DNA from: Nemertoderma westbladi
Taxonomy: Eukaryota; Animalia; Xenacoelomorpha
Reading direction: 5' to 3'
Length of the DNA stretch: 40,071 bases
NCBI GenBank assembly: GCA_032718475.1
Contig: JAUCBJ010008738.1
Span: 1 to 40,071 of the forward strand
Shown: positions 3,201 to 31,221 of the stretch, one piece after another
Layout of the letters: every line of letters begins with the position of its first letter
How positions within the stretch are numbered: the first letter of the stretch is position 1
Notes under the pieces: model-generated
The model's database searches: none
What the model was told of the DNA's origin: nothing
Seen by the model: only the letters and a program-made list of their open reading frames with translations
Made by a program: the position numbers and the translations under genes

Positions 3201-5132
3201 GAGAATATCCATCCCCCGCCGTCTCTCGTCTTCCCAATCAACCGCCGAAACGGGATCCGCCAACGTCGTAGCGGGCAGACGAGGGACAACGGGCGACAAA
3301 TTTGGAATATTTCGCTCGGGGTCCAGGACCTGAACTGTCTCCTGGGCAGTTCTACGGGGCACAGGTAGCTTAGTGCTATGCAGAGGGAATTTATAGGTAG
3401 CTTCAGGGAGCACAGGTGTATCTATTACCGAAGGGGTGATTTCAAGAACAGGCCTACTTATTTCAGGCTCATCTACTATAGTAGGGAGTCTTTCTATTGT
3501 CATTATTTGGTCTGTGGGTTCTGTACTCTCTAAGTTGGTGTTATTTAGTTGCCTTCTAACAGCTGGAGGCAAATCAGGCAATTTCTGACGGTGGAATGTT
3601 CTTTTACGTCTGCTTAGGCGGGATCGATTTCCTCCGCCTTCAGTGTCGGTGGTATCGCCTTCCTCAGATGATGTATAACCTTGTCGTTTGGGAGTAGATC
3701 GATTCATCATCTGCATATTACTAGCTGTTAACTGTTTATTAAAGTTATCTTGCCTCTCTTGAAGATTTTCCAACTCTAGTTGGGTTGTCTCTTCAGATGC
3801 CCTCCGTTCTGCTTCTGCCACTGCTATCTTTCTTTCCGCTTCTGCCGCTGCCGCTTTCCTTTCCGCTTCTACGGCTGCAGCTGCCACTTTTGCCTCTGCC
3901 GCTGCCGCTGCTGCCTTTCTTTCCGCTTCTGCCGCTGCCACTGCCGCTGCTGCTGTCTTTCTATCTTCTATACGTTTTTTCTTTACTTGTTCTTCTTGAA
4001 CCTTGGCGATGCGGAGTTGTTCATCGAATTTAGCTTGGTTCGCCGCTAACCTATCCACATCAATTGCATCTAACACAAGTTTGGCTCCCTCGCTGTTAGG
4101 GCTAAGTCCCTCCAGCCTTCTCCTCAACTCGTCATCTCCTAAAAAACGCTGATAGTCTGACAGATAGATGTCAATGGCATCCTTTTTATGCGGTTTCTCT
4201 GCCGTCGCTTCACTTTCCACTTGGGAAAAAGTAGCGTCTGTTGATTCTCCATGGGTTGAGCGCTCCTCCAACTGAGCTTTCCACTGAGCTGCTCCTTGAA
4301 CCTGGCGACTCACCCGTTGAAACCAAGTCTTTACGGCAACTTGCAACGACGTGTCTTGTTTTCTTTTAGAAGCCTCCTCAAAGGCGGATAAGATTAGCCT
4401 AATCCGCAGAACTCTTTCTCTAACTTGATAAAGCAGCTGTCCCTGCTCTTGAGGTCCTTGAGGTTGTTTAAACAGTTGTTTTTCTACTCGCTCCATAGAG
4501 CTGAAGAATCCCTGTGCGTATCCGGCTGCGGACCTCTTCCACACAGCTGGATCGATGGTTTCCTTGGCTACTCCCATCCGGTGTATGTCTTCCCAGGCAG
4601 CTTCTGATAAATCAAACGGGAGTCCGGGTCCGGGGAAGTTCCATTGCGACTCGACCATGGACTTCAGTTCTTCTCTTGTGTATCCAGCATAACTATCTCT
4701 AGTTGAACGCTGGCTTCTCGCCCAATCGATCTGGTGTTCTTCCACAGCGATCAATAACCTAGTGAGTACGGCTGCAGGAAGGATGAGAAGGGGATCCGTA
4801 TAGACCGCATCCGTCATCTCTGCTCCGCGCTCGGGTGTCAGCTCTACAGTATCCTCACTACTGGAGCTGCTGGGCCTCTGAGGAATAAGTTCTTGACTAG
4901 CGGGTTGTTGCTGTTCCGCTGCTTCTTGGTCCCGTTTGACCTGAGCTCGAGTGCCTATGATAGACCTACGATGTTGGACCAGCCTAGGTTCTTTTATTAC
5001 TACTGGAGGGATGACTTTCCTCACAGTGGGAGGTGAACTGAACTTACGACTAGAGGGTTCTACACCTCTATCTGAGTCGCAGATAGTTACATCTAATAGA
5101 CTGTCTGACAGGTTCTGCTTAGTATCAGACAT
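207..5132 (-). CDS. Gag-protease polyprotein, 1641 aa (long coiled-coil/low-complexity N-terminus, DUF1759-like Gag, zinc knuckles, aspartic protease); no RT or integrase
   Basis: KFNGDEMKWLPF..YLIECLEGSP..RYG Gag core; CVLCDGPHRLNAC, CYNCLRRGHQRRTC and CAKCGAKHHILLH knuckles; ALLDSGSTGTFI protease; YAVRTRVGWYLTGP; then QWRYCP..N.ADIASRG remnant of the BEL RNase H end. Confidence 0.92.
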   Translation of the reverse strand: MSDTKQNLSDSLLDVTICDSDRGVEPSSRKFSSPPTVRKVIPPVVIKEPRLVQHRRSIIGTRAQVKRDQEAAEQQQPASQELIPQRPSSSSSEDTVELTPERGAEMTDAVYTDPLLILPAAVLTRLLIAVEEHQIDWARSQRSTRDSYAGYTREELKSMVESQWNFPGPGLPFDLSEAAWEDIHRMGVAKETIDPAVWKRSAAGYAQGFFSSMERVEKQLFKQPQGPQEQGQLLYQVRERVLRIRLILSAFEEASKRKQDTSLQVAVKTWFQRVSRQVQGAAQWKAQLEERSTHGESTDATFSQVESEATAEKPHKKDAIDIYLSDYQRFLGDDELRRRLEGLSPNSEGAKLVLDAIDVDRLAANQAKFDEQLRIAKVQEEQVKKKRIEDRKTAAAAVAAAEAERKAAAAAAEAKVAAAAVEAERKAAAAEAERKIAVAEAERRASEETTQLELENLQERQDNFNKQLTASNMQMMNRSTPKRQGYTSSEEGDTTDTEGGGNRSRLSRRKRTFHRQKLPDLPPAVRRQLNNTNLESTEPTDQIMTIERLPTIVDEPEISRPVLEITPSVIDTPVLPEATYKFPLHSTKLPVPRRTAQETVQVLDPERNIPNLSPVVPRLPATTLADPVSAVDWEDERRRGMDILLGEMKENRIRSSQQVRELEGTVQHLKGTVRESKLELQEVQQNIALERDKLVNLQKGIPPPSVTMCQPVRSEVSHAQGVEPTRIYTASEVETPIVNPIKGNYRPVDNDIPYRTDHNPRNLYTDNSILNNTMAQESFTRQMARTEARQAVKVGEIVKFNGDEMKWLPFNEYYKDNIQNSVLSNGEKLRYLIECLEGSPKLMALKFIGHPDGLRQVWDTLNIRYGNRNNIAKYLYAKLVAPRKFISSGIIEFSDEIQEICRQLDWLGKSHEYQSSMVIGAVASTLPKGGVGTRWDKKVLYMMEQQRRDPTMADLMSFLDGEVKLQLLKQSREKTPENKVSEKPVSRRKVTPVCYTDDGESQTSQGEDSGKDTDRSYYVNKMPKDQVSKFKSRPNDRREPVQKTPPTSPKRIQVRKPEERTSVHHIAQVKVSNIKPKCVLCDGPHRLNACDKFLRKSLKDRCEVMWDKRLCYNCLRRGHQRRTCYSDARCAKCGAKHHILLHTEFERNSPSQVSESELHVQFSDVNDTDQSEMEGFYTDEFSDENESCYLINTTAVYRALMYEKDTDSDLTLTTSDQQPSWKAPTSNIGIREFPVVQLRVHGPQKSYIVNALLDSGSTGTFIDKELAEVIFAGQPKFRTKLNMSGIMQVWNSTVAADYYIGELSTPQDKLGEYSIRSVKMVAIKNFATTQADLYNWDEDESIQHLKIPRFQTDYPGVQILIGQNAHEALETLEKRPTQPQPLQTYAVRTRVGWYLTGPSRRTLRERLLQDRVCQVSEWEDDTSEGLNSNVDQWRYCPKTMNIADIASRGATPQELTDTTDRLGEPDFLSKEDEWPPHLTPTEIRPAKGAEKVKPKTRTGGAELFEPGIDLSVLHIARDDAVDLDLPTASGSFMKIRESDWSSGTSDVSQGLSPLLQRATDHYSSWNRLCDAVIYFERYFYRHYSRTKRKPGIVFRMQRLNHPVGRLCLPEGNGGLSGNCGRQDSHPTTTSLILQTSRDSVT

Positions 5133-6898
5133 ATTTGTGAGTACAGTTGAATGCCTACTGCTATATTACAGTCTAAGCAAGTCTAGTAATTCAGTATTAA
5201 CTGCTAGCCTAGTAATTAATTACCGATACTGCTACTCAGTGTAGCGTGATATATATAATATATTAAATACCGGTATGCTTATAGTATATATAAGTATTAT
5301 TACAGACTAGGTTTATCACAGAATACCGGTATAATTTTAGCACAAATATATATAAATATATAATAGGCCTATCGGGAATACCGGTATACAGCTTACAGTT
5401 TGTAGTATATATAATTCTGGAATAGAATTAATTACAAGTACCGGTATAATTTCAGCCTAGATTTATAGAAATAAAGATAATAGGCCTATCGTAAATACCG
5501 GTATATCAATTATTTTAAATAATTGAACTTCTGAATTTCAGGGTTACTTTGTTACTTTACTTACTTTATTACCATTATTTGAGCAGTAGTCCAACTGATA
5601 TGGAGACCTAATGGTTGTATGGTAGGCCTACTATTTATAAATCGTTAGATTTGATTTATAATATATATATACCCGTTTTAATGGGTTTTGTCAATGTTTG
5701 AAATAAATGTTATTATTTCTGGGGAGTAATCACTACACAAAGCGGTGCGCTTTCAGTGAAGTGTTACTTATAGGACACTAAAACAAATAATTCTAATTTA
5801 CCTAAGTTACTTAATACTACAAATTACGTACAATTCGGGTGAGATTACAATCTCTAAATAAACATAAAAATTTACAAAACACAAAATACGAATTTTTAGG
5901 GTAATTTTACAAGAAGTCTACAAACCAGCCTAACAAAGGGTTAGAAATCTGGTTATTACAACGGACAGGGTACTACGGTATTTGAAATAATAAGTAGTAG
6001 TAAATACACTGCGTTGTCCAGATAGGAAAATACCACCGCCTGACGACCTATAGCCGTATCGCTATAGGTTCTACGTTATGTATCACGGAGTGTTCCTACC
6101 TAGAAGTTAATAGAGCTAATCGAACGTGCCTATCAACCACTTTACAACACAAATATAATGCCTACACTAATTACTTTCGGAAAGCACTGTACACTAAACC
6201 CTAAATTAGGTACGAGTACTTGTACAACAGATAATCAATAGTTAAATATACTTGAACAGCTAAAAGAACCACGGCATCTGCTGGAGTGACCGATGCACAA
6301 AATCACCAGTCTTTACCTACGCCAAGCAGCCCGTGTAGTACCGGGGTTAATTTAACTATAGCGGTATGTATAACAAACACAATTACTGTAGGAACAAACT
6401 TGGGGAATGAATGTTGCGGATAATCGCATAAACTCTGAATAATAAATATTACGCTACGCGTACAAACCACTCAAACAAAATGCAGACCGAACACTGACAG
6501 ACTACTATCAAGCCTAAACAAACTACAGGACATGCAGACTCCGAAATGATTAGGGAGTATGCGTTCTAACCCAGTAGTACGACTTATTCTTTAGTTGGGG
6601 GTTTACCTTACAGCATTCGCTGCCCCTACTTCCTAACCGTACTTAATCGGACAGGTGATCTACACACACTGCAATCCGTTCAGACTTAACAGCAATCAGA
6701 CAACAGCTCAGCCTACAAATTGTCTGTACAATCTGATCAGGCTTACACGCCTTCTGTTCAATACTGGCCTACAAACAAATAAAACTTGACAGAAATAAGT
6801 AAAAATCTCAATAAAAAACCAGGGCTGCAGTCCCTGATTAATTATTAAGGCCTACCGGTATATAACTATCAAAATCGAATAATACTAGTGTACTTATA

Positions 6899-7094: not shown

Positions 7095-8340
7095 TGTTCG
7101 CGCTTTCAGACCTTTGGCAGTTTAACCCACCAAATTAAGATGTCTTCTAGATATTAAATCGCTTTTTAGCCTATGACAAGTATTTGATTCACTACACTAG
7201 TCGAAACCAATCTGTGCGCGATCATTCACCCGCTGGATATTCCCGGGAGATTGGGTTCGACGGTTTAATTTTATTGCTATGTAAGCCTAATGTATTATTC
7301 GACTGACAGTATTATATAATCTCTGACAATATTATTCACCTTCGGGAATATTAACAGTTCCTTTTGGACGTGGCGCTTTATTTATATAAACAGAGTTATG
7401 ACTTAAACTACTCACAACGATATGGCTTAATTATAATTCACATATATGGCGCATTCTTTAGGAAATGCTTCTTTAACAGACTCACTCGTACACAATGCTG
7501 CACAATACTGCACACTAATCTGCCAATCTTCACTGATTTTAGTCACATATAAAAGGAACACAGACTGACTCATGTAGGGTCTATCAAATAACATTAGATT
7601 CACTTCAAACCACTTTAACATAAGTCACAATCGTTATTGGTAACCTTTCTCTCTTACCTTCGGTATATCAAGAATATTGGGTGTCGGGGTTATTTCTCGT
7701 TATTCCAATATAATAATTCATCAACAAATATAATGAATAACCGATAACAAATAGCAATATACAGTATTGATTGAGCAGGTAAATTTTAGCAGTTTCAGCA
7801 GTTATTAAAAGCCGTGTGTCAGCAGTATTCACAGATCAGTGATTCCATGAGTTTGGTCGGTACGTCAGTTAAAGGATATATGTCCTTATAATTAAACCTA
7901 CTAGTGTTGAGCTAAAAAGCAGAAAAGCACAAAACACTATACAAATACACAAAACGCAAAACGCCGTTCTTTCGTGGCTTTGAAAAACTCGTGACTACTG
8001 CTCTATACGAGGATACCAACTACCCTTATTCCACGAAGCTCCCGTTCAACACAGAGAAAGAGCAGTGAGATAGGAAAATTTCAGTTCAGTAGCTCTGTGA
8101 TAGGTCAAAATCAAGGCTAACTCAAATTCTATTGGGAGATACAAAAACAAGGCTATGACGCAACCTTCTTAGGCTGGTTGGCCGATTAAACAGAGCCCAG
8201 ATACCTGCGTACAGCAAATCAGCCAATAAGCTGGTAGCTTGCGCTATTCGAGCTATAGATCCCCTTTTAGAGAATTCAGCGACTGGGGGGGAACTGGTTA
8301 GCAAGGCAAACGAATCAGTTATCCCACAAAAGCTTTTACA
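7095..8340 (-). repeat. 5' LTR of copy A (1246 bp, TG...CA)
   Basis: Termini match the LTRs of B. ~7095-7760 is highly similar to B and 7860-7930 recognisably similar; ~7990-8326 is unrelated. Confidence 0.9.
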
Positions 8341-9418: not shown

Positions 9419-10150
9419 GATTGATTTATTTATACATTAGGTCTATGTAAAAACAATAACAAATACACCAAACAATGTACTGGTATAAAGGTATTGTCCA
9501 ACATAACATAGTATTACCCCTAAAGCTTTGCAGCTTATTTCCAAGGGGGGTCCTTTATGTTACTTGGTTACAAATACAATATTACACTACGCTAACCTAA
9601 AACCAATATAAAACGTAATTACACTATGTACATGTACAACTTTACCGAGAGCGTGACAATGTCCGACTCAACGATAAAGATGTAATGTACAGAACAATTT
9701 ATTATAAAACGTAATTACAGTATAAATAGTGAATAATTAATAAACTAATAACTTTCTGTAGGACTATTGTACCTATTTTTACATTGCACACGGAGGTGAG
9801 ATTTAACTGCAGATTTAAAAGAATGTTGATTATCTAGGTTTTTTATTTCATTAGGCAGAGCGTTCCAATTTTTAATACCGTTAAAAAAGAAAGTATCAGA
9901 TTCGAAGGATTTACAATTCGGGAGGTAGAAGTTTGAAGCACTAGCTCTGGTACTGTAAGAGTGTGTATCGCGTACTCTGTTGAATTTTTGTTTTAGGTAA
10001 TTGGGACATTTACCATTATACACTTTATGCACATGGTTAAGGCGTAGCTGCCTAACTCTACTATTCTTACTAAAGACCCTCAATACTTTATTTTTTTTTT
10101 CTATCATCTTAACTCTACTATCTAAGTTAAGTAGTCCAGATTCATAAAAG
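9419..10150 (-). mobile_element. 3' end of a CR1/L2-type LINE (ORF2 C-terminus plus 3' UTR)
   Basis: CPNYL..RVRDTHSYSTR..TFFFNGIKNWNALPNEIK...FKSAVKSHL is a typical CR1/L2 ORF2 C-terminus; the UTR ends in AATAAATCAATC. Confidence 0.8.
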
Positions 10151-10639
10151 TACAACCTTTTTAGCGGGATTTTCAATTCAATCTACAGCATTTGTTGATG
10201 GCATTATTGATTGAAAATATTATTATCAATGGCTGAACGCGCTCTGTTAATATAGACGTACTTTAATTAGGCCGACAATACAACCGACATATTGTAGCAA
10301 ATTATAATATCTTTAACATATTAATTTTCTTTTAACTTATTCAGTAAATAGCTGTATTATCTACGGTCAGCGCTGTTAGATAAGCTGATTATAGTGTCAG
10401 GTGTTGTTGCTGTGTTGCTAACATTCCCATCTCACTATTGTATCGAACAGCTGTAGTCGAAATCTCAGGTTTTGGGGGGAGGTGAGATAGGTCCTGCTAT
10501 TTAGAGTATTGTAGAATATTGTGACTCCGCCACAATATTCGATTTAAATAAAGTACGTATCCGTCACGCAGTCGCTTACACTCGTTCTTAATACAATTAA
10601 TTCGAATAAGTAATGCGTAACATCCCTAATGAAACCAGT

Positions 10640-10880: not shown

Positions 10881-11097
10881 CTTTGGATAATTTCCTGATT
10901 TAGTTTTAAAGCAGATGAAATCTGTCCGTATGTTAGGCCTAAGTTAAAGTACGTCGATATTAACAGAGCGCGTTCAGCGATTGATAATAATATTTTCAAC
11001 TAATAATGCCATCAACAAATGCTGTAGATTGAATTGAAAATCCCGCTACAAAGGATGTACTTTTATTACCAGTATTATTTAGCCAATCAAAGTAAAG

Positions 11098-11726
11098 TTA
11101 GTAAGTCGTTCGCACGAGTTACTAAGTCGTTCGCACGCGTTAGTTAAGTCGTTCGCACGACTTAGTATGTCGTTCGCACGACTTAGTAAGTCGTTCGCAC
11201 GAGTTACTAAGTCGTTCGCACGCGTTAGTTAAGTCGTTTGCACGAATTAGTAAGTCGTTCGCACGAATTAGTAAGTCGTTCGCACGGTTACTAAGTCGTT
11301 CGCACGCGTTAGTTAAGTCATTCGCACGACTTACAGTAGTATGTCGTTCGCACGACTTAGTAAGTCGTTCGCACGCGTTAGTTAAGTCGTTCGCACGACT
11401 TAGTATGTCGTTCGACGACTTAGTAAGTCGTTCGCACGAGTTACTAAGTCGTTTGCACGTGTTAGTTAAGTCATTCGCACGACTTACAGTAGTATGTCGT
11501 TCGCACGACTTAGTAGGTCGTTCGCACGACTTAGTAAGTCGTTCGCACGAGTTACTAAGTCGTTCGCACGACTTAGTATGTCGTTCTCACGCGTTAGTTA
11601 AGTCGTTCGCACGACTTAGTATGTCGTTCGCACGGCTTAAGTATGTCGTTCGCACGAGTTAGTTAAGTCGTTCGCACAACTTAGTATGTCGTTCGCACGA
11701 CATACTAGGTCGTTCGCACGAGTTAG
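11098..11726. repeat. 21-bp tandem array (TTAGTAAGTCGTTCGCACGAC)n, subterminal repeat of the IS3EU-like element
   Basis: Roughly 28 degenerate copies, ending just before the CATGTCCCTTTAGGGGCTCCGTA terminus. Confidence 0.92.
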
Positions 11727-12799: not shown

Positions 12800-13274
12800 A
12801 TTTTAGAGCTACTGAATATAAACTACAATTATTAAAACTATGTACTGGCCACTCTATTCTCTGTACCCCATTTTCGAAGACCAAACTCCAAATAAACATA
12901 AATTTACTAGATACTTACGATAGTACTGTAAAGAATGGATCAACTTTGCTGAAAATTCTTGAATTGGTAGATACATCAAATTACCATCCGTGAACATCCA
13001 GTCTTTTGCATTATTTACCAAAAATCATCAGGTTCTAAATACAGATTCGATTCCAACGCCCCTGAGAATTATTGTATTTCACTGTTCCACTCGAACCAAC
13101 AGTCATAACCAAAGTCTAAATGATAGTTTGTATTCAGGTTCTAATTTAAATAATTTGTTGTGCAATTTAATATTACGTTTTAGACTTCAACCTTATTGTA
13201 CGCTATTGCGGAAATTGAAAAAGCATTTTTAAACAAGTAGGACTTAATGTATCAGACCGTTATTGTACACGTTT
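12800..13274 (+). pseudogene. Decayed BEL/Pao reverse transcriptase relic, 5' part (interrupted by element B)
   Basis: HQVL..TPLRIIVFHCS..SLNDSLYSGSNL..LILRFR..(A)EIEKAF..DRYCTRF with frameshifts; continues at 24654. Confidence 0.8.
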
Positions 13275-14473
13275 TGTAAAAGCTTTTGCTGAATTGTCCG
13301 GTTATTTTTCCTTATTTTTCCCGTAAAATACTCTGTAGTTGGTTTACCAGGCATAAAAAGGCCGTGTCCTTGCTGTACTGGTGTTTTAGCGGACATAAAA
13401 GCTATTTCTTCTGTATTTGTACTTTAGAGGACATAATCCGTAATTCCGTGACGTAAAAGCTCGATACTCTTGAAAACAGTGTCGCTACCATGACGACGGC
13501 TAGCAGCTGATATTGCCACGTCGACGTTTCTTTGTTTCTTTGTTCTCTCGTTGTTCAGGTTGACCAATCAGAGCGTTTGTTGTCTCTGTGTTGGAGGTGT
13601 ATACAGAAACTCAGTAGTTCAGTGTTATGTTTTGCCCAGAGCCTAAGAACCGGCTTTTGGCACCTCCGTGTTTTCAGTTTTTAGTCCTACACTAGTAGGC
13701 TTAATTATAAAGACATATATCCGTTATCTGATGTCTGATCTCAACATACCTCAACTCATAACATACCATACCTAATCAAACAACCTGTGCATACTTTTAT
13801 ATTGTTATGCTGCTATTTACTGTCGGTTCTTCATAATATGGTTGATGAATTATTATATTTGGAATAACGACAAATAACCCCGAAAACCCAATATTCTTGA
13901 TATACCGAAGGTAAGAGAGAAGGGTTACAGATAAATGATTGCGACTTATGTTGAGTGGTTTGAAGTGAATCTAATGTTATTTGATAGACCCTACATGATT
14001 CGGTCCGTGTTCCTTTTATATGTGACTAAAATCAGTGAAGATCGGCAGATCAGTGTGCAGTATTGTGCAGCATTGTGTATGAGTGAGACTGATAACGAAG
14101 CATTTCCTAAAGAATGCGCCATATATGTGAATTATAACTAAGCCATATCGTTGTGAGTAGTTTAAGTCATAACTCTTTTTATATAGATAGAGCGCCACGT
14201 CCTAAAGGAACTGTTAATATTTCCCGAAGGTGAATAATATTGTCAGAGATTATATAATACTGTCAGTCGAATAATACATTAGGCTTACATAGCAATAAAA
14301 TTAAGCCGTCGAACCCAATCTCCCGGGTATATCCAGCGGGTGAATGATCGCGCACAGATTGGTTTCGACTAGTGTAGTGAATTAAATACTTGTCATAGAC
14401 TAAAGGTGATTTATTATCTAGAAGACATCCTAATTTGGCGGGTTAAACTGCCAAAGGTCTGAAAGCGCAAACA
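13275..14473 (+). repeat. 5' LTR of element B
   Basis: Direct repeat of 23450-24648; only 2 differences noticed by eye (13833/24008 and 14469/24644); AATAAA at 14294. Confidence 0.97.
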
Positions 14474-14485
14474 ATAACGGATATA
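14474..14485 (+). promoter_or_regulatory. Non-tRNA primer-binding position of element B (ATAACGGATATA)
   Basis: Immediately 3' of the LTR, has no TGG, and is the exact reverse complement of TATATCCGTTAT at 13716-13727 (and 23891-23902). Confidence 0.7.
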
Positions 14486-14543
14486 GCTTCTTTATTGCAG
14501 TAAGCAATAAAGTTGAAAGTACCGGTCAACCGGTAAACCTGAA

Positions 14544-14667
14544 CGGTACATCTGTAGGTCAGTAGGCCCAACTGCCAGAACCGGTACTGCTGTAGGCCCG
14601 TAGGTCCAACTGCCAGAACCGGTACTTCTGTAGGTCCGTAGGCCCAACTGTCCTAACCGGTACTTCC
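14544..14667. repeat. 38-bp tandem repeat (~3 copies) in the leader of B
   Basis: CCGGTACT(G/T)CTGTAGG(C/T)CCGTAGG(T/C)CCAACTG units. Confidence 0.85.
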
Positions 14668-14842
14668 GTATAAGTACATTAGTATTATTCGACTTGATTG
14701 TTGTATACCGGTAGGCTGTTTAAGAGATTAGGGACTGTACACCCCTTGTTTCTTTTGGAGCTTACTTATTTCTGTCAGTTTTATTTATTTGTAGGCCAGT
14801 ATTGAACAGAAGGCGTGTAAACCTGATCAGATTGTACAGACG

Positions 14843-15415
14843 ATTTGTAGGCTGAGCTGTTGTCTGATTGCTGTTAAGTCCGAACGAATTGCAGTGTGTG
14901 TAGATCACCTGTCCGATTAAGTACGGTTAGGAAGTAGGGGCAGCGAATGCTGTAAGGTAAACCCCCAATTAAAGAATAAGTCGTACTACTGGGTTAGAAC
15001 GCATACTCCCTAATCATTTCGGAGTCTGCATGTCCTGTAGTTTATTTAGGCTTGAGAGTAGTCTGACATCGTTTAGTCTGTACTTTGTTTGTGTAAGTCC
15101 GTACAGGTAGCGTATAATATTTATTTAGATAATTTGTAGGCTGGATAGTTGTCTGGCTGCTATTAGGTCTGAACGGATTGTAGTGTGTGTAGAGCCTCTG
15201 TCCGATTAAGTACGGTTAGGAAGTAGGGGCAGCCAGTGCGGTAAAGTAAACCCCCAATTAAAGAATAAGTCGTACTACTGGGTTAGAACGCATACTGCCT
15301 AATCATTTCGGAGTCTGCATATACCGTAGTTTGTTTAGGCTTGATAGTAGTCTGTCGGTATTTGGTCTGCATTTTGTTTGAGTAGTTTGTACGCGTAGCG
15401 TAATATTTATTATTC
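14843..15415. repeat. ~290-bp diverged tandem duplication in the leader of B (single copy in A)
   Basis: ATTTGTAGGCTG...GTCCGATTAAGTACGGTTAGGAAGTAGGGGCAGC...TAATATTT occurs at 14843 and again at 15132. Confidence 0.85.
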
Positions 15416-16727
15416 AGAGTTTATGCGATTATTCGCAACATTCATATTCCCCAAGTTTGTTCCTACAGTAATTGTGTTTGTTATACATACCGTTATAGTT
15501 AAATTAACCCCGGTACTACACGGGCTGCTTGGCGTAGGTAAAGACTGGTGATTTTGTGCATCGGTCACTCCAGCAGATGCCGTGGTTCTTTTAGCTGTTC
15601 AAGTATATTTAACTACTGATTATCTGTTGTACAAGTACTCGTACCTAATTTAGGGTTTAGTGTACAGTGCTTTCCGAAAGTAATTATTGTAGGCATTATA
15701 TTTGTGTTGTAAAGTGGTTGATAGGCACGTTCGATTAGCTCTATTAACTTCTAGGTAGGAACACTCCGTGATACATAACGTAGAACCTATAGCGATACGG
15801 CCATAGGTCGTCAGGCGGTGGTATTTTCCTATCTAGACAGCGCAGTGTATTTACTACTACGTATTATTTCAAATACCGCAGTACCCTGTCCGTTGTAATA
15901 ACCAGATTTCTAACCCTTTGTTAGGCTGGTTTGTAGACTTCTTGTAAAATTACCCTAAAAATTCGTATTTTGTGTTTTTTGTAAATTTTTGTGTTTATTT
16001 AGAGATCGTGATCTCAACCCGAATTGTACGTAATTTGTAGTATTAAGTAACTTAGGTAAATTAGAATTATTTGTTTTAGTGTCCTATAAGTAACACTTCA
16101 CTGAAAGCGTACCGCTTTGTGTAGTGATTACTCCCCAGAAATAATAACATTTATTTCAAATATTGACAAAGCCCATTAAAACGGGTATATATATATTATA
16201 AATCAAATCTAACGATTTATAAATAGTAGGCCTACCATATAACCATTAGGTCTCAATATCAGTTGGACTACTGTTCAAATAACGGTAATAAAGTAAGTAA
16301 AGTAACAAAGTAACCCTAAAGTTCAGAAATTCAATTATTTAAAATAATTGATATACCGGTATTTACGATAGGCCTATTATCTTTATTTCTGTAAATTTAG
16401 ACTGAAATTATACCGGTACTTGTAATTAATTCTAGTCCAGAATTATATATACTACAAATTGTAAGCTGTATACCGGTATTCCCGATAGGCCTATTATATA
16501 TTTATATATATTTGTGCTAAAATTATACCGGTATTCTGAGATAAACCTAGTCTGTAATAATACTTATATATACTATAAGCATACCGGTATTCTAATATAT
16601 TATATATATATCACGCTACACTGAGTAGCAGTATCGGTAATTAATTACTAGGCTAGCAGTTAATACTGAATTACTAGACTTGCTTAGACTGTAATATAGC
16701 AGTAGGCATTCAACTGTACAAACAAAA

Positions 16728-19700
16728 ATGTCTGACACAAAACGGGCACTGTCAGATAGTCTTTTGGAAGGTGTTAGAATCAGCCTTAGACTTGGACAGG
16801 GTCTTGAAAGGAAGATGGCAGAGGCAATGGCAACAGCAGAAGCGAAAAGAAAGGCGGCAGAGGCAATGGCAACAGCAGAAGCGAAAAGAAAGGCGGCAGA
16901 GGCAATGGCAACAGTAGAAGCGGAAAGAAAGATAGAGACACCTGTACTCCCAGAACCTGCCTATAAATTCCCTTTGTACAGTACTAAACTACCTGTGCCC
17001 AGTAGGACTGTTCCCGAGTCCGAACCCATCCTGGACGCCGAGCGAGATATTAAGAATTTATCACCCGTCGTCTCTCGCTCGCCCGCTACAACGTTGGCGA
17101 CTCCCGCTTCGGCGGTTGAGTGGGTAGCTGAGGGACGACGGGAGATGGGTCTCCTGCTCGAGCAGCTGAGGGAACACTGTTTGTGCTCCTCTCAGCAGGT
17201 CCGGGAAATGGAAGAGACTGTTCAGCAGCTCAAGGGAACAGTAAGGGAAAGTAGGTTAGAGTTGCAAAAGGTGCAGCAAAGTATCGCGTTAGAATGCGAT
17301 AAATTAGTGAACATACAAAGGGGTATAACACCACCCCCTGTAACAATGTGTCAACCCGTTAGGTCTGAAGTATTTCATGCGCAAGGTGTGGAGCCTACAC
17401 GCATCTATACTGCTAGTGAAGTAGAAACTCCTATAGTAAACCCTATTCAGGGTAATTATAAACCTGTTGATAATAATATTCCATATAGACCTGATCATAA
17501 TCCGAGAAATTTATATACCGATAATTCTATATTCAATAATACGATGGCTCAAGAAAGTTTTACGCGTCAAATGGCTAGAACCGAAGCCCGGCAAGCGGTA
17601 AAGGTTGGAGAGATCGTCAAGTTCAATGGAGATGAGATGAAATGGTTACCTTTTAATGAATATTACAAAGATAACATACAGAACTCTGTACTATCTAACG
17701 GAGAGAAACTTAGATTCCTCATCGAATGTTTGGAAGGACCTCCCAAGTCAATGGCGTTAAAATTTATTGGACATCCAGATGGATTAAGACAAGTTTGGGA
17801 TACACTAAACATCAGGTATGGTAATAAGACTAACATAGCTAGGTATCTATATGCGAAATTAATGGTGCCCCGAAAGTTTCTTAGCAGCGGGATTATAGAG
17901 TTTTCCGATGAGATTCAGGAGATCTGTAGACAACTAGATTGGTTAGGTAAGTCTCATGAATACCAGAATTCTATGGTTGTAGGAGCCTTAGCATCTACTT
18001 TGCCCAAGGGTGGAGTAGGTACACGCTGGGACAAGAAGGTGTTATATATGATGGAACAACAACAACGAGACCCTACCATGGCTGATCTCATGTCATTCCT
18101 GGATAGCGAGGTGAAATTACAGCTCATAAAGCAGTCCAGAGAGAAGACAGCGGAAAGTAAGGTAAGTGAGAAACCCGTTTCTAGGAGAAGGGTAACACCA
18201 GTATGTTATACCGACGACGGTGAAAGCCAAACTTCTCAAGGAGAGGACAGCGGGAAAGACACTGACAGATCTTATGTCAATAAAATGCCTAAAGATCAGG
18301 TAAGTAAATCCAAGTCTCGACCCAATGACAGAAGGGAACCGGTACAAAAAACCCCTCCTACATCTCCTAAAAGAATTCAGGTGAGAAAGCCCGAGGAAAG
18401 AACAAGTGTGCACCACACAGCACATGTTAAAGTAAGTAACATCAAGCCCAAATGTGTGCTGTGCGACGGGCCCCACCGTTTAAATGCGTGTGATAAATTA
18501 CTGAGGAAATCACTAAAGGATAGACGTGAAGTCATGTGGGATAAGCGGTTGTGTTATAATTGCCTCAGACGAGGACACCAACGGCGAACCTGTAACTCCG
18601 ACGCAAGGTGTGCAAAGTGCGGCGCAAAACATCATATCTTGTTGCACACGGAATTCGAACGAAACAGCCCGAGTCAGGTAAGTGAGTCCGAACTACATGT
18701 CCAATTCAGTGATGTGAACGACACTGATCAATCTGAGATGGAAGGATTCTATACGGACGAGTTCTCCGACCAAAACGAATCCTGTTACCTAATAAACACC
18801 ACCGCAGTGTATCGAGCACTCGTGTATGAAAAAGACACAGACAGCGACCTCACCCTAACTACTTCAGATCAACAACCATCTTGGAAAGCGCCAACTTCCA
18901 ATATAGGAATCCGAGAATTTCCTGTAGTCCAGTTACGGGTCCACGGACCTCAGAAGAGCTATATAGTGAATGCCCTCCTGGACTCCGGTAGCACAGGAAC
19001 ATTCATCGATAAAGAGCTAGCCGAAGATATATTTGCTGGACAGCCCAAGTTCCAAACTAAGCTCAACATGTCTGGCATTATGCAAGTTTGGAAATCTACA
19101 ATAACAGCTGATTATTATGTAGGCGCGTTGTCCACCCCACAAGACGAACTAGGAGAACACAGCATAAGGTCAGTGAAAATGGTGGCTATAAAGAACTTCG
19201 CTACTACTCAAGCAGACCTTTATAATTGGGACGAGGATGAGAGCATTCAACATCTTAACATACCTCGATTCCAGACTGATTATCCTGGAGTGCAAATACT
19301 CATCGGCCAAAACGCGCATGAGGCGCTGGAGACATTAGAGAAACGACCTGCTCAACCGCAGCCACTACAGACCTATGCGGTAAGAACTAGAGTAGGTTGG
19401 TACCTTACTGGACCTTCCCGCAGAACGCTCAGGGAAAGACTGCTTCAAGATCGCGTCTGCCAGGTGAGTGAATGGGAAGATGATACTGGTGAGGGAGACG
19501 ACCCAACTGAGGGAACACCACACTCCTCAGATAATGACAATCTTAGCTCCAATGTAGATCAATGGAGATATTGCCCCAAGAAGTTTAATCCAACGGACAT
19601 CGCTTCCAGAGGAGCAACTCCTCAAGAACTGACAGATACTATAGACCGGTTAGGTGAACCCGACTTCCTGAGTAAGGAGAATGAATGGCCTCCCCATCTT

Positions 19701-20192
19701 ACTCCGACTGAGATTAGACCAGCCAAGGGAGCGGAGAAAGTTAAACCTAAAACCCGGACGGGTGGAGCGGAGTTATTTGAACCCGGGATAGATCTGTCGG
19801 TATTGCATATTGCCAGGGATGACGCCGTGGATTTGGACCTCCCCACCGCGAGTGGATCCTTCATGAAGATCAGAGAGAGCGATTGGAGCTCTGGAACATC
19901 AGACGTCTCGCAGGGACTCTCACCTCTCCTGCAGAGAGCGACGGACCACTATAGCTCCTGGAATCGGCTTTGTGATGCCGCCATATACTTTGAGCGATGT
20001 TTCTATCGTCACTATTCCAGGACGAAGAGGAAACCTGAAATTGTATTCAGGATGCAGCGACTCAATCATCCAGTCGGTCGTTTGTGTTTACCGGAAGGGA
20101 ATGGAGGACTCTCCGGAAACTGTGGAAGGCAAGATTCTCATCCCACGACCACCTCCCTAATCCTTCAAACATCTAGGGACTCCATAACGTAA
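16728..20192 (+). CDS. Gag-protease polyprotein, 1154 aa; no RT or integrase
   Basis: Same motifs as 207-5132 (Gag core, three Cys/His knuckles, LLDSGS protease), with a shorter N-terminus containing three AEAMAT(A/V)EA repeats. Confidence 0.93.
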   Translation: MSDTKRALSDSLLEGVRISLRLGQGLERKMAEAMATAEAKRKAAEAMATAEAKRKAAEAMATVEAERKIETPVLPEPAYKFPLYSTKLPVPSRTVPESEPILDAERDIKNLSPVVSRSPATTLATPASAVEWVAEGRREMGLLLEQLREHCLCSSQQVREMEETVQQLKGTVRESRLELQKVQQSIALECDKLVNIQRGITPPPVTMCQPVRSEVFHAQGVEPTRIYTASEVETPIVNPIQGNYKPVDNNIPYRPDHNPRNLYTDNSIFNNTMAQESFTRQMARTEARQAVKVGEIVKFNGDEMKWLPFNEYYKDNIQNSVLSNGEKLRFLIECLEGPPKSMALKFIGHPDGLRQVWDTLNIRYGNKTNIARYLYAKLMVPRKFLSSGIIEFSDEIQEICRQLDWLGKSHEYQNSMVVGALASTLPKGGVGTRWDKKVLYMMEQQQRDPTMADLMSFLDSEVKLQLIKQSREKTAESKVSEKPVSRRRVTPVCYTDDGESQTSQGEDSGKDTDRSYVNKMPKDQVSKSKSRPNDRREPVQKTPPTSPKRIQVRKPEERTSVHHTAHVKVSNIKPKCVLCDGPHRLNACDKLLRKSLKDRREVMWDKRLCYNCLRRGHQRRTCNSDARCAKCGAKHHILLHTEFERNSPSQVSESELHVQFSDVNDTDQSEMEGFYTDEFSDQNESCYLINTTAVYRALVYEKDTDSDLTLTTSDQQPSWKAPTSNIGIREFPVVQLRVHGPQKSYIVNALLDSGSTGTFIDKELAEDIFAGQPKFQTKLNMSGIMQVWKSTITADYYVGALSTPQDELGEHSIRSVKMVAIKNFATTQADLYNWDEDESIQHLNIPRFQTDYPGVQILIGQNAHEALETLEKRPAQPQPLQTYAVRTRVGWYLTGPSRRTLRERLLQDRVCQVSEWEDDTGEGDDPTEGTPHSSDNDNLSSNVDQWRYCPKKFNPTDIASRGATPQELTDTIDRLGEPDFLSKENEWPPHLTPTEIRPAKGAEKVKPKTRTGGAELFEPGIDLSVLHIARDDAVDLDLPTASGSFMKIRESDWSSGTSDVSQGLSPLLQRATDHYSSWNRLCDAAIYFERCFYRHYSRTKRKPEIVFRMQRLNHPVGRLCLPEGNGGLSGNCGRQDSHPTTTSLILQTSRDSIT

Positions 20193-20499
20193 CAACATAT
20201 GGAGTGGGTGTATGACTCTATTATTTTATATTATTTTATTATTTTTATATTTCTGTATGTATTACTATGTAATTTTATTATAATCGTTTTCTTTAATTCT
20301 ATTCAGTAGAATGTTATTTTAGCGATTATTTAGTAGATTAGTGCAATATATATTCGCGTTTATTACTTAATTACGTATGTATTATATTTAGTGCGACGGC
20401 AAGGGATAATTCTTTTCTCTTTCCTTACGGTGTCCGTATCATATTATAAATACGTGACTACAGTAAGATGAAATGTCCGTACTTATTAAAGTACAATAA

Positions 20500-21290
20500 A
20501 GCCACTACTATATTCAAGTATTATTGGTAGGCAGAGTATTAGGAATGCAAAGTTCAGATCCTCGTGTCTCGGCTAAACCAAGCTCTGGGTAGACCTTGGA
20601 AATGACTTGCCTCTTCACACTGACATTGCTTCGTGCGATATTGCTCTCATACCGTATATTAAATAATACATATAGTAGCGTGATGTCCCTTTAACAGTAG
20701 CGTATAACGCAAAATAAATCTGTTAAACCCTTTGACCATCTGTAATTCTAGTCGATTAAGATATCGTGGCACCCACCGATATACTTGAAAGACAAATTAT
20801 AGAATCAGTGGTTAACGTCCCCAGACAAGTTCTGGAATAAATCGGTGCCCATCTCAAATATTAATTATTTAATATTTGCAAATCTAATAAGTCAAAATCT
20901 GTAAAATTCAGATCCTTCAACAATTCTAGTCAATTAAGATATCGTAGCATTTACCGATATTCTTAAAAAGACAATTGTCATAGAATTAAGGATCTTGTGT
21001 CCCCAGACATGTTCTAGAATCAAAATATGTCAATTTAATTATCAAATAATAAAATTTCAGGGAATAAATTTAAATTCATACCTTTTAATGAATTTAATAA
21101 ATTGCCATTTTTACGCAATTTATAACATTCCCAAAATTCCATTAATTAATAGATCAAGGGAGCGGAGATTTATCTTATTATGCGTATGAGTGTGCGAAAG
21201 TCTCCCAAACATAGTCAATAGCCGATAAAATTCATAAAGTCATGTATAAAACAGGACATTGACCATTAAAGAATTACTATTAAATAACAT
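20500..21290 (+). pseudogene. Heavily decayed BEL integrase remnant (tentative)
   Basis: TCLFTLTLLRAILL at 20605-20646 resembles the CLFTCxxTRAVHLE motif; PDKFWNK at 20821 resembles ADxFWxRW; no open frame. Confidence 0.4.
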
Positions 21291-21871
21291 CCCAGATCTG
21301 TATGCATTGGAATTACCCTAATTCTACCGCTAGCTTTGCATAATGTCACCATAGCAACAACCACGCTAGAATTAGAATTGAGTTAAAAGAACAATAGAAA
21401 GCTTGTCCCATTGAATAGCATAGGGAATAAATAGTGCACTGCTAGTATCCAAGGATACATGATAATAACGTGACATTCTGGAAGGCACTGACTAACGGAC
21501 AAGTGACCCGAGTGTGTGTAATTTGTGACAAGTTGTGTGTGTGGTATTTGTGAGTTTATAGGCGAATGTTACTACTAAGGTGTGTTTACAGTAGCGAGTC
21601 GCAATTGTGAAAGTAACCCTAACTCTCCAGTAAGAACCTGAGGTGTATCTAAGCCTTTGGGACGGACAGTCGAGTGACTTGTGCCGGTTGTCTTTGTCGT
21701 TGTGCGGCTACGTCGTTGGCGAAAGTACAGCGGCGACGACACATCGGCGCTGAGGATCTCGTACTGTCCGGGGGTTGATTGGGGTAGGCAGCGATGCCCG
21801 CTCGCCTAAATATAAACTCATTATAATATGGATAAACTCATATATAGCAGATATGACGGAGTTGATAGAAG

Positions 21872-22810
21872 ATGGTCTTGGTATCGGGGAACGATATACT
21901 CTACTTTCAAACGTTTGTTGATAGCTTGATACGCGGTGATACTAGTCCAACTACTACGAAGGATGATGGTCGTTATATCGAACCGCCAATGTCCCAAGAG
22001 CAGCTCACGCGTGAGTTGGACTATAAGAAATTCACCGCTCGCTATACGCATCGTAATAGTACGTATGTGGACTTCTTAACTACTGGTCATCCTATCGATT
22101 TACACGATACGGACAATGTCGACACCAAAAGGGAAATGGTACGATTGAAATATCCTACCCAGCGGAGGCGGAACGATAAACCGAGAATGGAACACGAGAA
22201 TTCTATTCGAAACAGACTCGAAAGAGAAAACGTTGAGGAGCCGGATAAACGCAGCGACTTCAACGATTATCTGGAATTCCTGATAGAAACATATCTCAAT
22301 ATTGCCAGTCAACAAAATCTAGAAACTCGATATCCTCAAGGTATACATCATGACCGCATGGTAGAACTCAAACGGCTCGATTCCCCTATGATGTATCTTA
22401 CCGCCGATCGACCGCTACCTGTTGTACCGAATAGCTTCGAACGGATGGAGGAATATTGTAAGCTGGAGAAAGATCACTCGCGTTTCCCCTACAAGACGTA
22501 CGTTTTTGGGTATTATTGCGATGAATGCCCAAGACCCAACCAACGAACGGAAAGACATAAACATCCGCGGAGACGTTGCTTTAAACACGGTTTTACTCGC
22601 TATACTTACAGGAGTTTCGAGCGAAACTTGTTCAATGTATCACCTACGCTCGTTCGACTCAGACGATCCTTAAATAAACCAATGATCAGAGTTTCGGAAT
22701 ACTCGATCAGAGCTCCTCATTCCCTAGTGAGACCTCAGACTCTTGATCCTATTAGTATGACGGATCCTCCCGAGCTGTATTCACTGTTCAAAGATCTAGT
22801 GCTACCCTAA
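21872..22810 (+). CDS. Orphan ORF2 (312 aa) in the env position of element B; hydrophilic, with a Cys/His cluster
   Basis: 939-nt uninterrupted ATG-TAA frame in AT-rich DNA; YCDECPRPNQRTERHKHPRRRCFKH motif; no signal peptide or TM segment visible. Confidence 0.75.
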   Translation: MVLVSGNDILYFQTFVDSLIRGDTSPTTTKDDGRYIEPPMSQEQLTRELDYKKFTARYTHRNSTYVDFLTTGHPIDLHDTDNVDTKREMVRLKYPTQRRRNDKPRMEHENSIRNRLERENVEEPDKRSDFNDYLEFLIETYLNIASQQNLETRYPQGIHHDRMVELKRLDSPMMYLTADRPLPVVPNSFERMEEYCKLEKDHSRFPYKTYVFGYYCDECPRPNQRTERHKHPRRRCFKHGFTRYTYRSFERNLFNVSPTLVRLRRSLNKPMIRVSEYSIRAPHSLVRPQTLDPISMTDPPELYSLFKDLVLP

Positions 22811-23441
22811 CAATTAATCGGTAACACTCCTACAGTGATTTCTAGCTAGCCGCCCATCTTACCTAGCCGGATTGTGACGCGGACATTTAATATCGCCGTT
22901 TAACCCTTACCATCTTCCCGGCTTGACACGATATAACCTGTCACCAGAGTGGCGGAGAACGTTGTACCAAATGAGTTAAACGCTATTCTACAAAGATCAG
23001 AAAGGAAACCTACGTTTGTTCAGATAAATGTAAGTTATAACAGCAAGTCCAAGCGATAAACGAATTGTCTTTATCTCAGTTCGATTGTGAAATCCAGAAT
23101 CTCTAAGAAGATATCGCACTTAGACAACCCCATTCTCTGCGAGAGTTTTTGGATGAACGTATCCAGCTACGAGCGGAGGAAAATCAGCTCGAGGAGAAGC
23201 ATATCGAAACGGCGGATACCCCGACCATAATCCTACACCTTCTGATGCAATCATATTGCACCTTTCACCCAGGATTTATAGCCCTCCTAGTAAAGTGGCT
23301 CCCCCCAAAGAGAAAAGGACTCTTGCTAGCCTCAAGAAACTGCGTAAACGCCGTCTGCGCAAAGAAACTAACTGTTTAGAGTATCTTTATGTTTTAGAAA
23401 CTGTGATTTTTATATTTTATAGACTGAAAATCCCATTTTCT

Positions 23442-23449
23442 GGGAGCGG
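23442..23449 (+). promoter_or_regulatory. Polypurine tract of element B
   Basis: GGGAGCGG directly abuts the TG of the 3' LTR. Confidence 0.7.
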
Positions 23450-24648
23450 TGTAAAAGCTTTTGCTGAATTGTCCGGTTATTTTTCCTTATTTTTCCCGTA
23501 AAATACTCTGTAGTTGGTTTACCAGGCATAAAAAGGCCGTGTCCTTGCTGTACTGGTGTTTTAGCGGACATAAAAGCTATTTCTTCTGTATTTGTACTTT
23601 AGAGGACATAATCCGTAATTCCGTGACGTAAAAGCTCGATACTCTTGAAAACAGTGTCGCTACCATGACGACGGCTAGCAGCTGATATTGCCACGTCGAC
23701 GTTTCTTTGTTTCTTTGTTCTCTCGTTGTTCAGGTTGACCAATCAGAGCGTTTGTTGTCTCTGTGTTGGAGGTGTATACAGAAACTCAGTAGTTCAGTGT
23801 TATGTTTTGCCCAGAGCCTAAGAACCGGCTTTTGGCACCTCCGTGTTTTCAGTTTTTAGTCCTACACTAGTAGGCTTAATTATAAAGACATATATCCGTT
23901 ATCTGATGTCTGATCTCAACATACCTCAACTCATAACATACCATACCTAATCAAACAACCTGTGCATACTTTTATATTGTTATGCTGCTATTTACTGTCG
24001 GTTCTTCCTAATATGGTTGATGAATTATTATATTTGGAATAACGACAAATAACCCCGAAAACCCAATATTCTTGATATACCGAAGGTAAGAGAGAAGGGT
24101 TACAGATAAATGATTGCGACTTATGTTGAGTGGTTTGAAGTGAATCTAATGTTATTTGATAGACCCTACATGATTCGGTCCGTGTTCCTTTTATATGTGA
24201 CTAAAATCAGTGAAGATCGGCAGATCAGTGTGCAGTATTGTGCAGCATTGTGTATGAGTGAGACTGATAACGAAGCATTTCCTAAAGAATGCGCCATATA
24301 TGTGAATTATAACTAAGCCATATCGTTGTGAGTAGTTTAAGTCATAACTCTTTTTATATAGATAGAGCGCCACGTCCTAAAGGAACTGTTAATATTTCCC
24401 GAAGGTGAATAATATTGTCAGAGATTATATAATACTGTCAGTCGAATAATACATTAGGCTTACATAGCAATAAAATTAAGCCGTCGAACCCAATCTCCCG
24501 GGTATATCCAGCGGGTGAATGATCGCGCACAGATTGGTTTCGACTAGTGTAGTGAATTAAATACTTGTCATAGACTAAAGGTGATTTATTATCTAGAAGA
24601 CATCCTAATTTGGCGGGTTAAACTGCCAAAGGTCTGAAAGCGCGAACA
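23450..24648 (+). repeat. 3' LTR of element B
   Basis: Direct repeat of 13275-14473, followed by the TSD CGTTT. Confidence 0.97.
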
Positions 24649-24653
24649 CGTTT

Positions 24654-25250: not shown

Positions 25251-25585
25251 CCGCTTAACTAACAACATAAATCAATATTGGATATAAGTTATATTATGGT
25301 GTGTGCAATCAGACACTTAATTTGCAATAACGTTTGAGTGTGTGCATGGATTTTTCTCAAATGTCCTGAAAACCTTTTCTACTTTCGATCCTCTCTCAAC
25401 GCATGTAATAAAATTTATGAAATTCCACCAAAATTTTTAATTTTACTTTTTAAGGCGGAAAAAATTTAAATCGATGCAATCCTATGGGTTATTTTTTCCC
25501 TAGGGAAAAAAATCCATTTTCTCCCGATTTTGGTGTATATTCAAGTGAAAAAGTAGCAATTAAAAGTATTTTTTATTATTTTCAG

Positions 25586-26284
25586 TTAAGTAAAATACAG
25601 AAAGACAGGTATATAATGAGCATCTATAAGTTCGCGATGCTATCGATTAAGTTAGCACATGCAGGAATTGTAATTTCGAAAGAAGAAAAGATAGGCGTAA
25701 AGATACAACAGAGGGTAGATGAAACTGTTGGATTCGATCGTAACTGGAACGAATATGTTGCTGGATTTGGGGATGTATCTACAAATTTCTGGATTGGTCT
25801 CGAAACGCTGTCAAAGCTATGTAAAGGTGGGGTTAAGTTGAGAATTGATTTGTGGTTCACTGGATATGGATACGATGGTACCACGGGAGATTTTTTGGAA
25901 AGTAATGACACCACGGGATACTACGTGGAATACCAGAACGAACACCGATACGCCGAATACAGCAACTTCTATATCGGATCAGCTGCAACTGATTATCACC
26001 TACATGTATCCGGTTACCAAGGCACTATTGGTGATGCATTGTCTGCGAGGCATAACTGTCAGCCATTCTCCACCAAAGACCGCCGCAACAATCCCCAATC
26101 CTACTGCTTGGTAACAGATCTTACAGGAGGGTGGTGGTTTAACGCAGACTGCTCGGGCAGCAACTTGAATGGAAGGTATGTTTCGCCATCGCTTTACATT
26201 TGGAATCAACCGGTCAATTCGTCCTCGAATGCATCAGTAGTCGAAGAATACGCTAATCGAATTGAAATGAAGATTTGGATTTAG
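25586..26284 (+). CDS. Coding exon 2: fibrinogen C-terminal (FReD) domain, ficolin/techylectin/angiopoietin-like
   Basis: IQQRVD..FDRNWNEYVAGFGD..FWIGLE..LRIDL..YAEYSNFYIG..YHLHVSGYQGTIGDAL..HN.QPFSTKDR..GGWWFNADCSGSNLNG..EMKI. Acceptor TTTTTTATTATTTTCAG ends at 25585 in phase 0; AATAAA at 26316. Confidence 0.9.
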   Translation, partial: LSKIQKDRYIMSIYKFAMLSIKLAHAGIVISKEEKIGVKIQQRVDETVGFDRNWNEYVAGFGDVSTNFWIGLETLSKLCKGGVKLRIDLWFTGYGYDGTTGDFLESNDTTGYYVEYQNEHRYAEYSNFYIGSAATDYHLHVSGYQGTIGDALSARHNCQPFSTKDRRNNPQSYCLVTDLTGGWWFNADCSGSNLNGRYVSPSLYIWNQPVNSSSNASVVEEYANRIEMKIWI

Positions 26285-30789: not shown

Positions 30790-31221
30790 TATCCAATCCT
30801 CCTGTAGGATATATCTCTTCTGATATATCTTTATCGCTCCCCTTCGGAACTGATACACCTCCTGTTTCCCTGGCCTCACTCCCCATTTCAGCGAGTTCGC
30901 CAGCTCCGCTCCATACTCCTCTCGGAACTTACCCCAGTCCATCGGCTTGTGGCAGATAAGCCCCATGAGCTGGTCCATCGCCACTGCTTCACAATGTCCC
31001 ATGCCCGCTCCGTGCTCCTCCCGGAACTTGCCCCAATCCATCGGCTTGTGGCAGACAAGGCCTATGAGCTGGCCCATCCCCACTGCTCCACAATGTCCTG
31101 TGTTCTCTACCACCACCAAAGTGCCAATTTTCCTTAGTCTTATTTTATTTTTCTTATGTTCCCCCCTGTCTGTGTATTATCCTTTCTACCTTTCTACTTC
31201 CTCCTTACTATGTACCCTACT

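Follow-up and report, generated by a model that had tools for sequence, protein, structure and literature searches.

What primes reverse transcription in a BEL/Pao retrotransposon that carries no tRNA-type primer binding site (PBS)? The ICTV describes the Belpaoviridae as primed by host tRNA, with an 18-nt PBS complementary to the 3' end of tRNA-Arg or tRNA-Gly (PMC8742986), and this agrees with the initial annotation of the locus, which had noted that BEL/Pao elements are in general described as tRNA-primed. The stretch of DNA analysed here, 40,071 nt of Nemertoderma westbladi contig JAUCBJ010008738.1 (the window), holds two related elements, copies A and B, and a PBS of that kind was found in neither.

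Two BEL/Pao copies in the window

Copy B lies as a whole element at 13275-24648 of the plus strand. Comparison of its LTRs gave a 5' LTR of 1199 bp with TGT...ACA ends at 13275-14473 and a 3' LTR at 23450-24648, directly preceded by a short purine tract (23442-23449). The two LTRs differ at 2 positions, and the 5-mer CGTTT is duplicated at 13270-13274 and 24649-24653. From the low number of LTR differences, the TGT...ACA ends and the duplicated 5-mer, we conclude that copy B is a recent insertion. Copy A is on the minus strand and extends past the start of the window, so the element is incomplete there; its 5' LTR of 1246 bp was located at 7095-8340. Between the copies, the R-U5 part of the LTR is ~94% identical and the internal parts are 91-96% identical. 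The U3 regions (13275-13675 in B, 8340-7920 in A) could not be aligned and showed 24-52% identity per 50-nt bin. An unalignable U3 beside such similar R-U5 and internal parts indicates a U3 swap between subfamilies.

The ORF of copy B (16695-20192, plus strand) encodes a BEL-type Gag (DUF1759), three Cys-His motifs, a protease and a C-terminal RNase H motif. The ORF of copy A (207-5165, minus strand) has the same layout of Gag, protease and RNase H tail. DUF1759 was matched in Pfam with E values of 1.5e-13 (B) and 7.8e-12 (A), the Cys-His motifs and the aspartic protease were read from the translations of both ORFs, and the in-frame tails of both matched the RNase H C-terminus of BEL polyproteins. 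When thirteen BEL polyproteins were used as queries, no match to a reverse transcriptase or an integrase was observed in either copy. Since both domains are absent, we regard A and B as non-autonomous BEL/Pao elements that need a helper. A 313-amino-acid ORF inside B (21869-22810) stands at the place of the integrase, has no Pfam match and is possibly a captured sequence. The 2.2-kb leader between PBS and Gag contains tandem repeats of 38 bp (3.3 copies, 14544-14670) and 289 bp (2 copies, 14843-15411).

The best protein relatives were 20-35% identical over long stretches. They carried the BEL domain set as a simple polyprotein in 14 of 15 and in 4 of 4 matches, the fifteenth being a composite. 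No close autonomous relative was found in the searches of sequence collections. In metagenomes, a 15-nt pattern that proved too short matched 119 loci, none of them homologous. Among viral contigs no relatives were observed (0/4, 0/33 and 0 matches), and 3 pattern matches there had a likeness of at most 39 nt. Prokaryote genomes gave 5 matches of only 20-31 nt.

Taken together, the DUF1759 Gag, the triple Cys-His motif, the protease and the RNase H tail place A and B with BEL/Pao (Belpaoviridae, Semotivirus), and the LTR features of this family, namely 1.2-kb LTRs with TG..CA (here TGT..ACA) ends, a 5-bp target-site duplication and a short purine tract, were all found in copy B. A and B differ from the family in having no tRNA-Arg/Gly PBS and in the loss of reverse transcriptase and integrase from both copies. 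Judged by their sequence, they are BEL-derived elements that depart from the priming described for the family.

The window holds several other features. A third, distant BEL-type Gag-protease ORF (DUF1759; 34319-36259, minus strand) is not accompanied by a pair of LTRs within the window. A reverse transcriptase ORF at 30854-32788 (plus strand) reads as the non-LTR type and is flanked by related tandem arrays of 81 bp and 99 bp. Between A and B we observed a 21-bp tandem array of 29 copies (11098-11726) and beside it an inverted repeat pair of 123 nt (10144-10266 and 10944-11066). An ORF with a fibrinogen C-terminal domain (25454-26284, plus strand) adjoins B and points to an animal host gene.

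Complementarity between the PBS and the LTR

The initial annotation had reported that the sequence following each 5' LTR is complementary to a segment of that LTR. We recomputed the coordinates and confirmed this for both copies. In B, the 12 nt directly after U5 (14474-14485, plus strand) are the exact reverse complement of 13716-13727, and in A the 12 nt at 7094-7083 (minus strand) are the exact reverse complement of 7880-7869. Positions 1 and 5 of the PBS differ between A and B, and at both positions the two partners have changed together, such that 12/12 Watson-Crick pairs are kept in each copy. The reported absence of a TGG-type PBS also held, as no TGG occurs within the first 100 nt after either 5' LTR. 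The candidate self-primer, 13716-13727 in B and 7869-7880 in A, starts at LTR position 442 (B) or 461 (A), and in both copies the match, when anchored at the edge of the LTR, has a length of exactly 12 nt. In the first 47 nt of the leader (14474-14520), the two PBS changes are the sole differences between A and B.

The probability of an anchored 12-nt match arising by chance was calculated with Markov models of orders 0-2 and was 2.4-7.3e-4 per LTR for B and 3.3-3.6e-4 for A. Control positions in the window gave matches of at least 12 nt in 17 of 72,514 cases (B) and 19 of 72,514 (A). Because A and B share ancestry, their matches are not two independent draws. What adds to the signal is the double compensation between PBS and 12-mer, which is expected by chance at ~2e-4, given a leader divergence of 4.5%. 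The primer:PBS duplex had an energy of -13.3 and -11.6 kcal/mol for the cognate pairs versus -7.3 kcal/mol when primer and PBS were crossed between the copies. This is the geometry of a self-primer: opposite the first base after U5 stands the 3' end of the 12-mer, and its extension would copy the LTR end.

A CCA tail cannot end-match this PBS, and the 3'-terminal base of the would-be primer differs between A and B. ARAGORN found 0 tRNA genes in the window, no tRNA-like Rfam match was present in the 5' part of the element, and the 2 Rfam matches within 13200-16800 were at chance level; on these results, a tRNA primer encoded by the element was rejected. Taken together, the sequence data make it very probable that this BEL/Pao family self-primes with its own LTR 12-mer.

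Just after the PBS, the leader forms a perfect 9-bp hairpin (14490-14512, plus strand) that is identical in A and B. Two-strand folding lengthened the primer duplex by 7 bp through 13707-13713; this extension was discarded, since the leader hairpin wins over it in full folds.

A second partner of the 12-mer within the LTR

In folds of the LTR with upstream bases, the 12-mer is also part of a predicted stem, which we call S2. Its 5' arm (13698-13728, plus strand) consists of the 18 nt upstream of the primer, the primer itself and one further base. The 3' arm, an internal mimic of the PBS, is located at 14091-14144 in B (blocks 14091-97, 14121-28 and 14132-44) and at 7424-7477 of the minus strand in A (blocks 7477-71, 7447-40 and 7436-24). 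The stem is alike in both copies and is built of three blocks of 13, 8 and 7 pairs round a small hairpin (14100-14117); all 28 positions pair in A, and 27 of them in B. The 3' arm mimics the PBS over 11 of the 12 primer positions. Each primer change is matched here once more, 13723 by 14096 and 13727 by 14092, and it is this second compensation of the same two positions by an internal LTR partner (14091-14144) that is new here. Of two further A/B differences in the stem, one leaves a G-U pair in A and the other a mismatch in B.

S2 was picked by inspection among many possible stems, and the chance of its double compensation, ~4e-4 at the R-U5 divergence of 5.8%, is the value before allowing for this choice. 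Dinucleotide shuffles reached the binding energy of S2 in 1/40 cases for B (z -3.7) and in 0/40 for A (z -5.3). When the arms were swapped between the copies, the A island (the conserved segment that holds the 5' arm) fell from -18.2 to -12.6 on the B partner, and the B island fell only from -22.5 to -20.3 on the A partner. Since the S2 partner has no route by which it could be templated, its compensation points to selection on the stem, and we hold S2 with high confidence to be a real RNA stem.

Other stems appeared in the LTR folds. The upstream half of the island can form nested outer stems with U5 (13677-13696:14368-14407), which need an RNA spanning both. One of these (13677-86:14398-407) has one apparent compensation (13685/14399) and a probability of 0.99 in A, and is not in the best fold of B; the other (13687-96:14368-77) has one mismatch in A. 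A stem between U3 and the end of U5 was seen as well.

Predicted folding depends on the RNA 5' end

The folding of RNAs with different 5' ends was calculated at 25 C. In these equilibrium predictions over 800-900 nt, in which the primer-to-PBS loop of ~750 nt is a span where such folding is unreliable, the primer:PBS helix of B had a probability of 0.99 when the 5' end was 0-14 nt before the 12-mer. With the 5' end 18 nt upstream, the value for B was 0.00 and S2 reached 0.91. For RNA starts no more than a few nt from the 12-mer of B, its predicted pairing with the PBS was 0.97-0.99. For A, the helix was at 0.70 with 0-1 nt, at 0.41 with 6 nt and at 0.00 from 10 nt upstream. Over both copies, 18 nt of upstream sequence gave primer:PBS probabilities of 0.00-0.09, and in an RNA with 150 nt of U3 that ended past the AATAAA the 12-mer was in S2 at 0.89-0.91. 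The predicted switch was the same at 15, 25 and 37 C. In A, the four 3'-terminal primer pairs reached only 0.20-0.41 even with the ideal 5' end, which is poor for a cleavage of the Tf1 type; here the 7-pair block of S2 competes.

Tf1 needs a "pretzel" of three duplexes, according to the accessible part of PMC10085805. In A and B such a three-duplex structure could not be supported. The leader duplex of the pretzel was rejected, as the leader folds on itself, and the flanking duplexes needed by Tf1 were not found above chance in the shuffle test of either copy. A possible U5-end duplex (14345-14360 with 14456-14473) had a probability of 0.94-0.99 in A, a value also reached by 23/200 shuffles; in B, where a private change at 14469 breaks it in the 5' LTR, 96/200 shuffles reached the value.

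Other roles for S2 and release by processing

If the 12-mer is the primer, S2 may still serve something else, such as 3'-LTR-specific activation of poly(A), strand transfer or packaging, with the masking of the primer as a side effect. Foamy virus, which is tRNA-primed, offers a parallel. Its RNA with 13 extra U3 bases folds unlike the RNA that starts at +1, which allows identical LTRs to behave differently, as stated in the accessible text of PMC3694450. A and B are predicted to share such a U3-dependent refolding that separates the 5' from the 3' LTR, S2 forming only with U3 bases. They also share the order of elements in the LTR, since a putative 5' splice-donor-like site (13908-13916, plus strand, GT at 13911) lies upstream of an AATAAA that is likely the poly(A) signal (14294-14299, plus strand), both identical in A and B. 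In the accessible description of foamy virus the switch controls U1 binding and poly(A) choice, whereas in A and B the stem is long-range and is predicted to act on the self-primer. By this analogy, a role in poly(A) choice would be the main alternative to a primer lock. An S2 made for another role does not account for a partner that mimics the PBS and tracks both primer changes, and we consider this explanation rather unlikely.

The donor-like site allows another scenario, in which transcription starts further upstream, S2 holds the primer and splicing from 13911 (e.g. to 14246) or some other processing frees the 12-mer. The site lies between the primer and its S2 partner. When 13911-14246 was held unpaired, 5' ends lying 18-31 nt upstream regained a primer:PBS helix of 0.89-0.99, and the weak 3' primer pairs of A rose to 0.86-0.95. 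With 60 nt upstream the rescue failed (0.49 in B, 0.00 in A). The acceptor has a poor pyrimidine tract, and no GT..AG joint occurred among the 10 joints listed from the public runs, one of which is only by guess RNA. The donor may rather act to suppress poly(A), in the manner of foamy virus. Release by processing is therefore, on this balance, clearly improbable, and self-priming from a 5' end close to the 12-mer is the reading we follow below.

Alleles of the family and the conserved island

Assembled contigs from four coded public DNA runs (X1, X3, X4 and X5) were compared with copy B. Read as shares of summed contig depth, which is not copy number, and among the variants listed (40/170), the A-type letters at PBS positions 14474/14478 made up 62%/64% in X1 and 50%/61% in X3. 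Within the same variants they made up 83% in X5 and were missing in X4, where 14474 is covered and 14478 is not. The shares in X1 and X3 indicate that both PBS types are spread family-wide. The alleles of the contigs are unlinked, and linked triples of primer, PBS and S2 come from the two copies A and B. At the S2 mismatch site of B, the pairing base accounted for 63-65% of X1/X3 contig depth. At 14469, the A of the B 5' LTR is private, and a G stands in the B 3' LTR, in copy A and in 98-99% of X1/X3 contig depth. One contig of X4 carries two purine changes in the upstream arm, and in its primer the C of position 7 is a T. Near 14132-14141, loose ends of X1 carry both partner changes that would keep the upstream S2 blocks paired. 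These pieces come from different runs and are unlinked, so that they are a lead to a third subfamily and a hint only; such a type would be predicted to have an A at PBS position 14479, or to keep the G there in a G-U pair.

The identity bins and the contig depth delimit a conserved island at 13676-13730 (plus strand), which is likely the U3/R border. It lies between the subfamily-specific U3, in which A and B are unalignable upstream of ~13676, and a hypervariable stretch. From 13726-28 to 13732-34 the depth dropped from 134,321 to 7,097 in X1 and from 87,098 to 3,190 in X3. Loose ends starting at 13726-13730 were 7 of 14 among those listed, with at least 6 unlike continuations. A 55-nt island that is common to the subfamilies and ends just past the 12-mer fits a core promoter followed by the primer.

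The island bears on a caveat of the initial annotation, by which a TATAAA at 13706 might put the start downstream of the 12-mer and leave the 3' LTR copy as the pairing partner. A related possibility is a primer of LTR origin supplied by another molecule, such as a short promoter-proximal RNA, a small RNA or a co-packaged helper RNA, or by the copy in the 3' LTR; genomic RNA would then start past this TATA. Cis and trans pairing cannot be told apart by complementarity, a helper is needed by these elements, and the TATA-like run is present in B. The run, however, fails the consensus TATAWAWR in A and B, and its bases are an arm of the covarying stem. A start 25-30 nt past it would hit the least conserved part of the family, so the island does not fit such a start, and the 12-mer of the 3' LTR (23891-23902 in B), being in a U3-containing RNA, is predicted to be locked in S2. 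We thus disfavour the caveat, and a primer from another molecule appears very unlikely. A 12-mer at the 5' end of the element's own genomic RNA is more in line with the island.

Proposed mechanism

The initial annotation had proposed that this BEL lineage self-primes with a transcript start near 13716, and both the sequence and the predicted folds lend support to this. We suggest that the genomic RNA would start at or a few nt before 13716, that the upstream arm of S2 would then be missing and that the 12-mer would pair with the PBS. By analogy with Tf1, the RNase H of the reverse transcriptase of an autonomous partner would act in trans and cut after base 12, and the freed 3'-OH would be extended into U5. 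Where the arm 13698-13715 is present, as in the copy in the 3' LTR or in RNA that reads through or starts upstream, it is predicted to zip up S2 and hide the 12-mer, and only the correct 5' end could prime. After strand transfer, the 12-mer would be inherited with U3 from the 3' LTR. On the retroviral scheme, plus-strand copying of the primer would rewrite the PBS, and PBS and primer would then stay matched without selection. Such a reset means that the PBS covariation shows the LTR segment to be the primer more than it shows selection.

Taken together, Tf1-like self-priming with a covarying LTR stem that is predicted to lock the 12-mer in upstream-carrying RNA is the best explanation of the data, and as a whole we judge it probable. 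Its parts differ in strength. On the folding models, the arguments for and against S2 acting as a primer lock are evenly balanced, and the simplest use of the stem would be to lock read-through RNA and the second copy of the primer. The widest version is that a BEL/Pao lineage primes with its own 5' end and has evolved a co-evolving, PBS-mimicking switch, possibly released by splicing, that locks the 3' LTR copy and wrong-start transcripts; we put it forward tentatively, as slightly more open to doubt than to belief.

Comparison with known priming systems

In Tf1, 11 nt at the RNA 5' end show complementarity to the PBS and are cut by RNase H (accessible text of PMC7175516), and in Tf2 the choice of the start site decides whether an RNA can be reverse-transcribed (likewise for PMC5341516). 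Self-priming is reported for the Tf1/sushi and Tcn1 groups and predicted for the copia lineage TAR in the available portions of PMC6317226, PMC4600332 and PMC6934838. A and B resemble Tf1/Tf2 of S. pombe, Tj1 and the Tf1/sushi and Tcn1 groups, as far as the accessible texts describe them, in that the PBS after the 5' LTR pairs with an LTR segment, 12 nt long here and 11 in Tf1. They are unlike these Ty3/gypsy chromoviruses in superfamily, in their BEL-type proteins and in a primer-PBS loop of ~750 nt. A and B have an internal, covarying mimic of the PBS that is predicted to mask the primer; the accessible parts of the sources on the Tf1 groups make no mention of such a mimic. From its sequence, the element seems to work like Tf1 and not to be a member of the Tf1 group. 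With the TAR lineage of plant Ty1/copia elements (Houba, Osr-1), A and B share an LTR-PBS complementarity of at least 10 nt, the criterion given in the accessible text of PMC6317226. TAR differs in being a copia lineage of plants, and that text describes no covarying masking stem for it.

The tRNA priming that the ICTV states for the family (PMC8742986), and half-tRNA priming in copia lineages (accessible text of PMC6317226), would favour a tRNA fragment or other host RNA as the primer, with the LTR match as a structural element or chance, but this needs two host RNAs differing at the 3' base and leaves the 12/12 LTR complementarity with its double compensation unexplained, and is most improbable.

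The preferred reading, self-priming from the LTR, has not been described for BEL elements in the openly accessible literature that we searched, in agreement with the initial annotation, which knew of no such report; a prior annotation elsewhere, for instance in Repbase or GyDB, is possible. The BEL survey PMC3118150 contains no occurrence of primer, tRNA or PBS. A second survey (PMC554778) does not discuss priming and mentions only PCR primers. Nothing further on BEL priming was found in the accessible parts of PMC8220671, PMC3601003 and PMC3286476.

Implications

The replication of BEL/Pao elements has been called poorly understood. A self-priming BEL lineage would extend tRNA independence beyond the gypsy chromoviruses and a copia lineage, and it matters for the question of a single ancestral or a repeated origin of self-priming. 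LTR annotation that demands a tRNA PBS would miss or misjudge such families. Self-priming elements each carry a second copy of the primer in the 3' LTR, and a covarying stem would be a concrete, testable answer to how this copy is silenced. If the reading is true, self-priming occurs in all three LTR superfamilies, here with a layer of quality control that is not described for Tf1.
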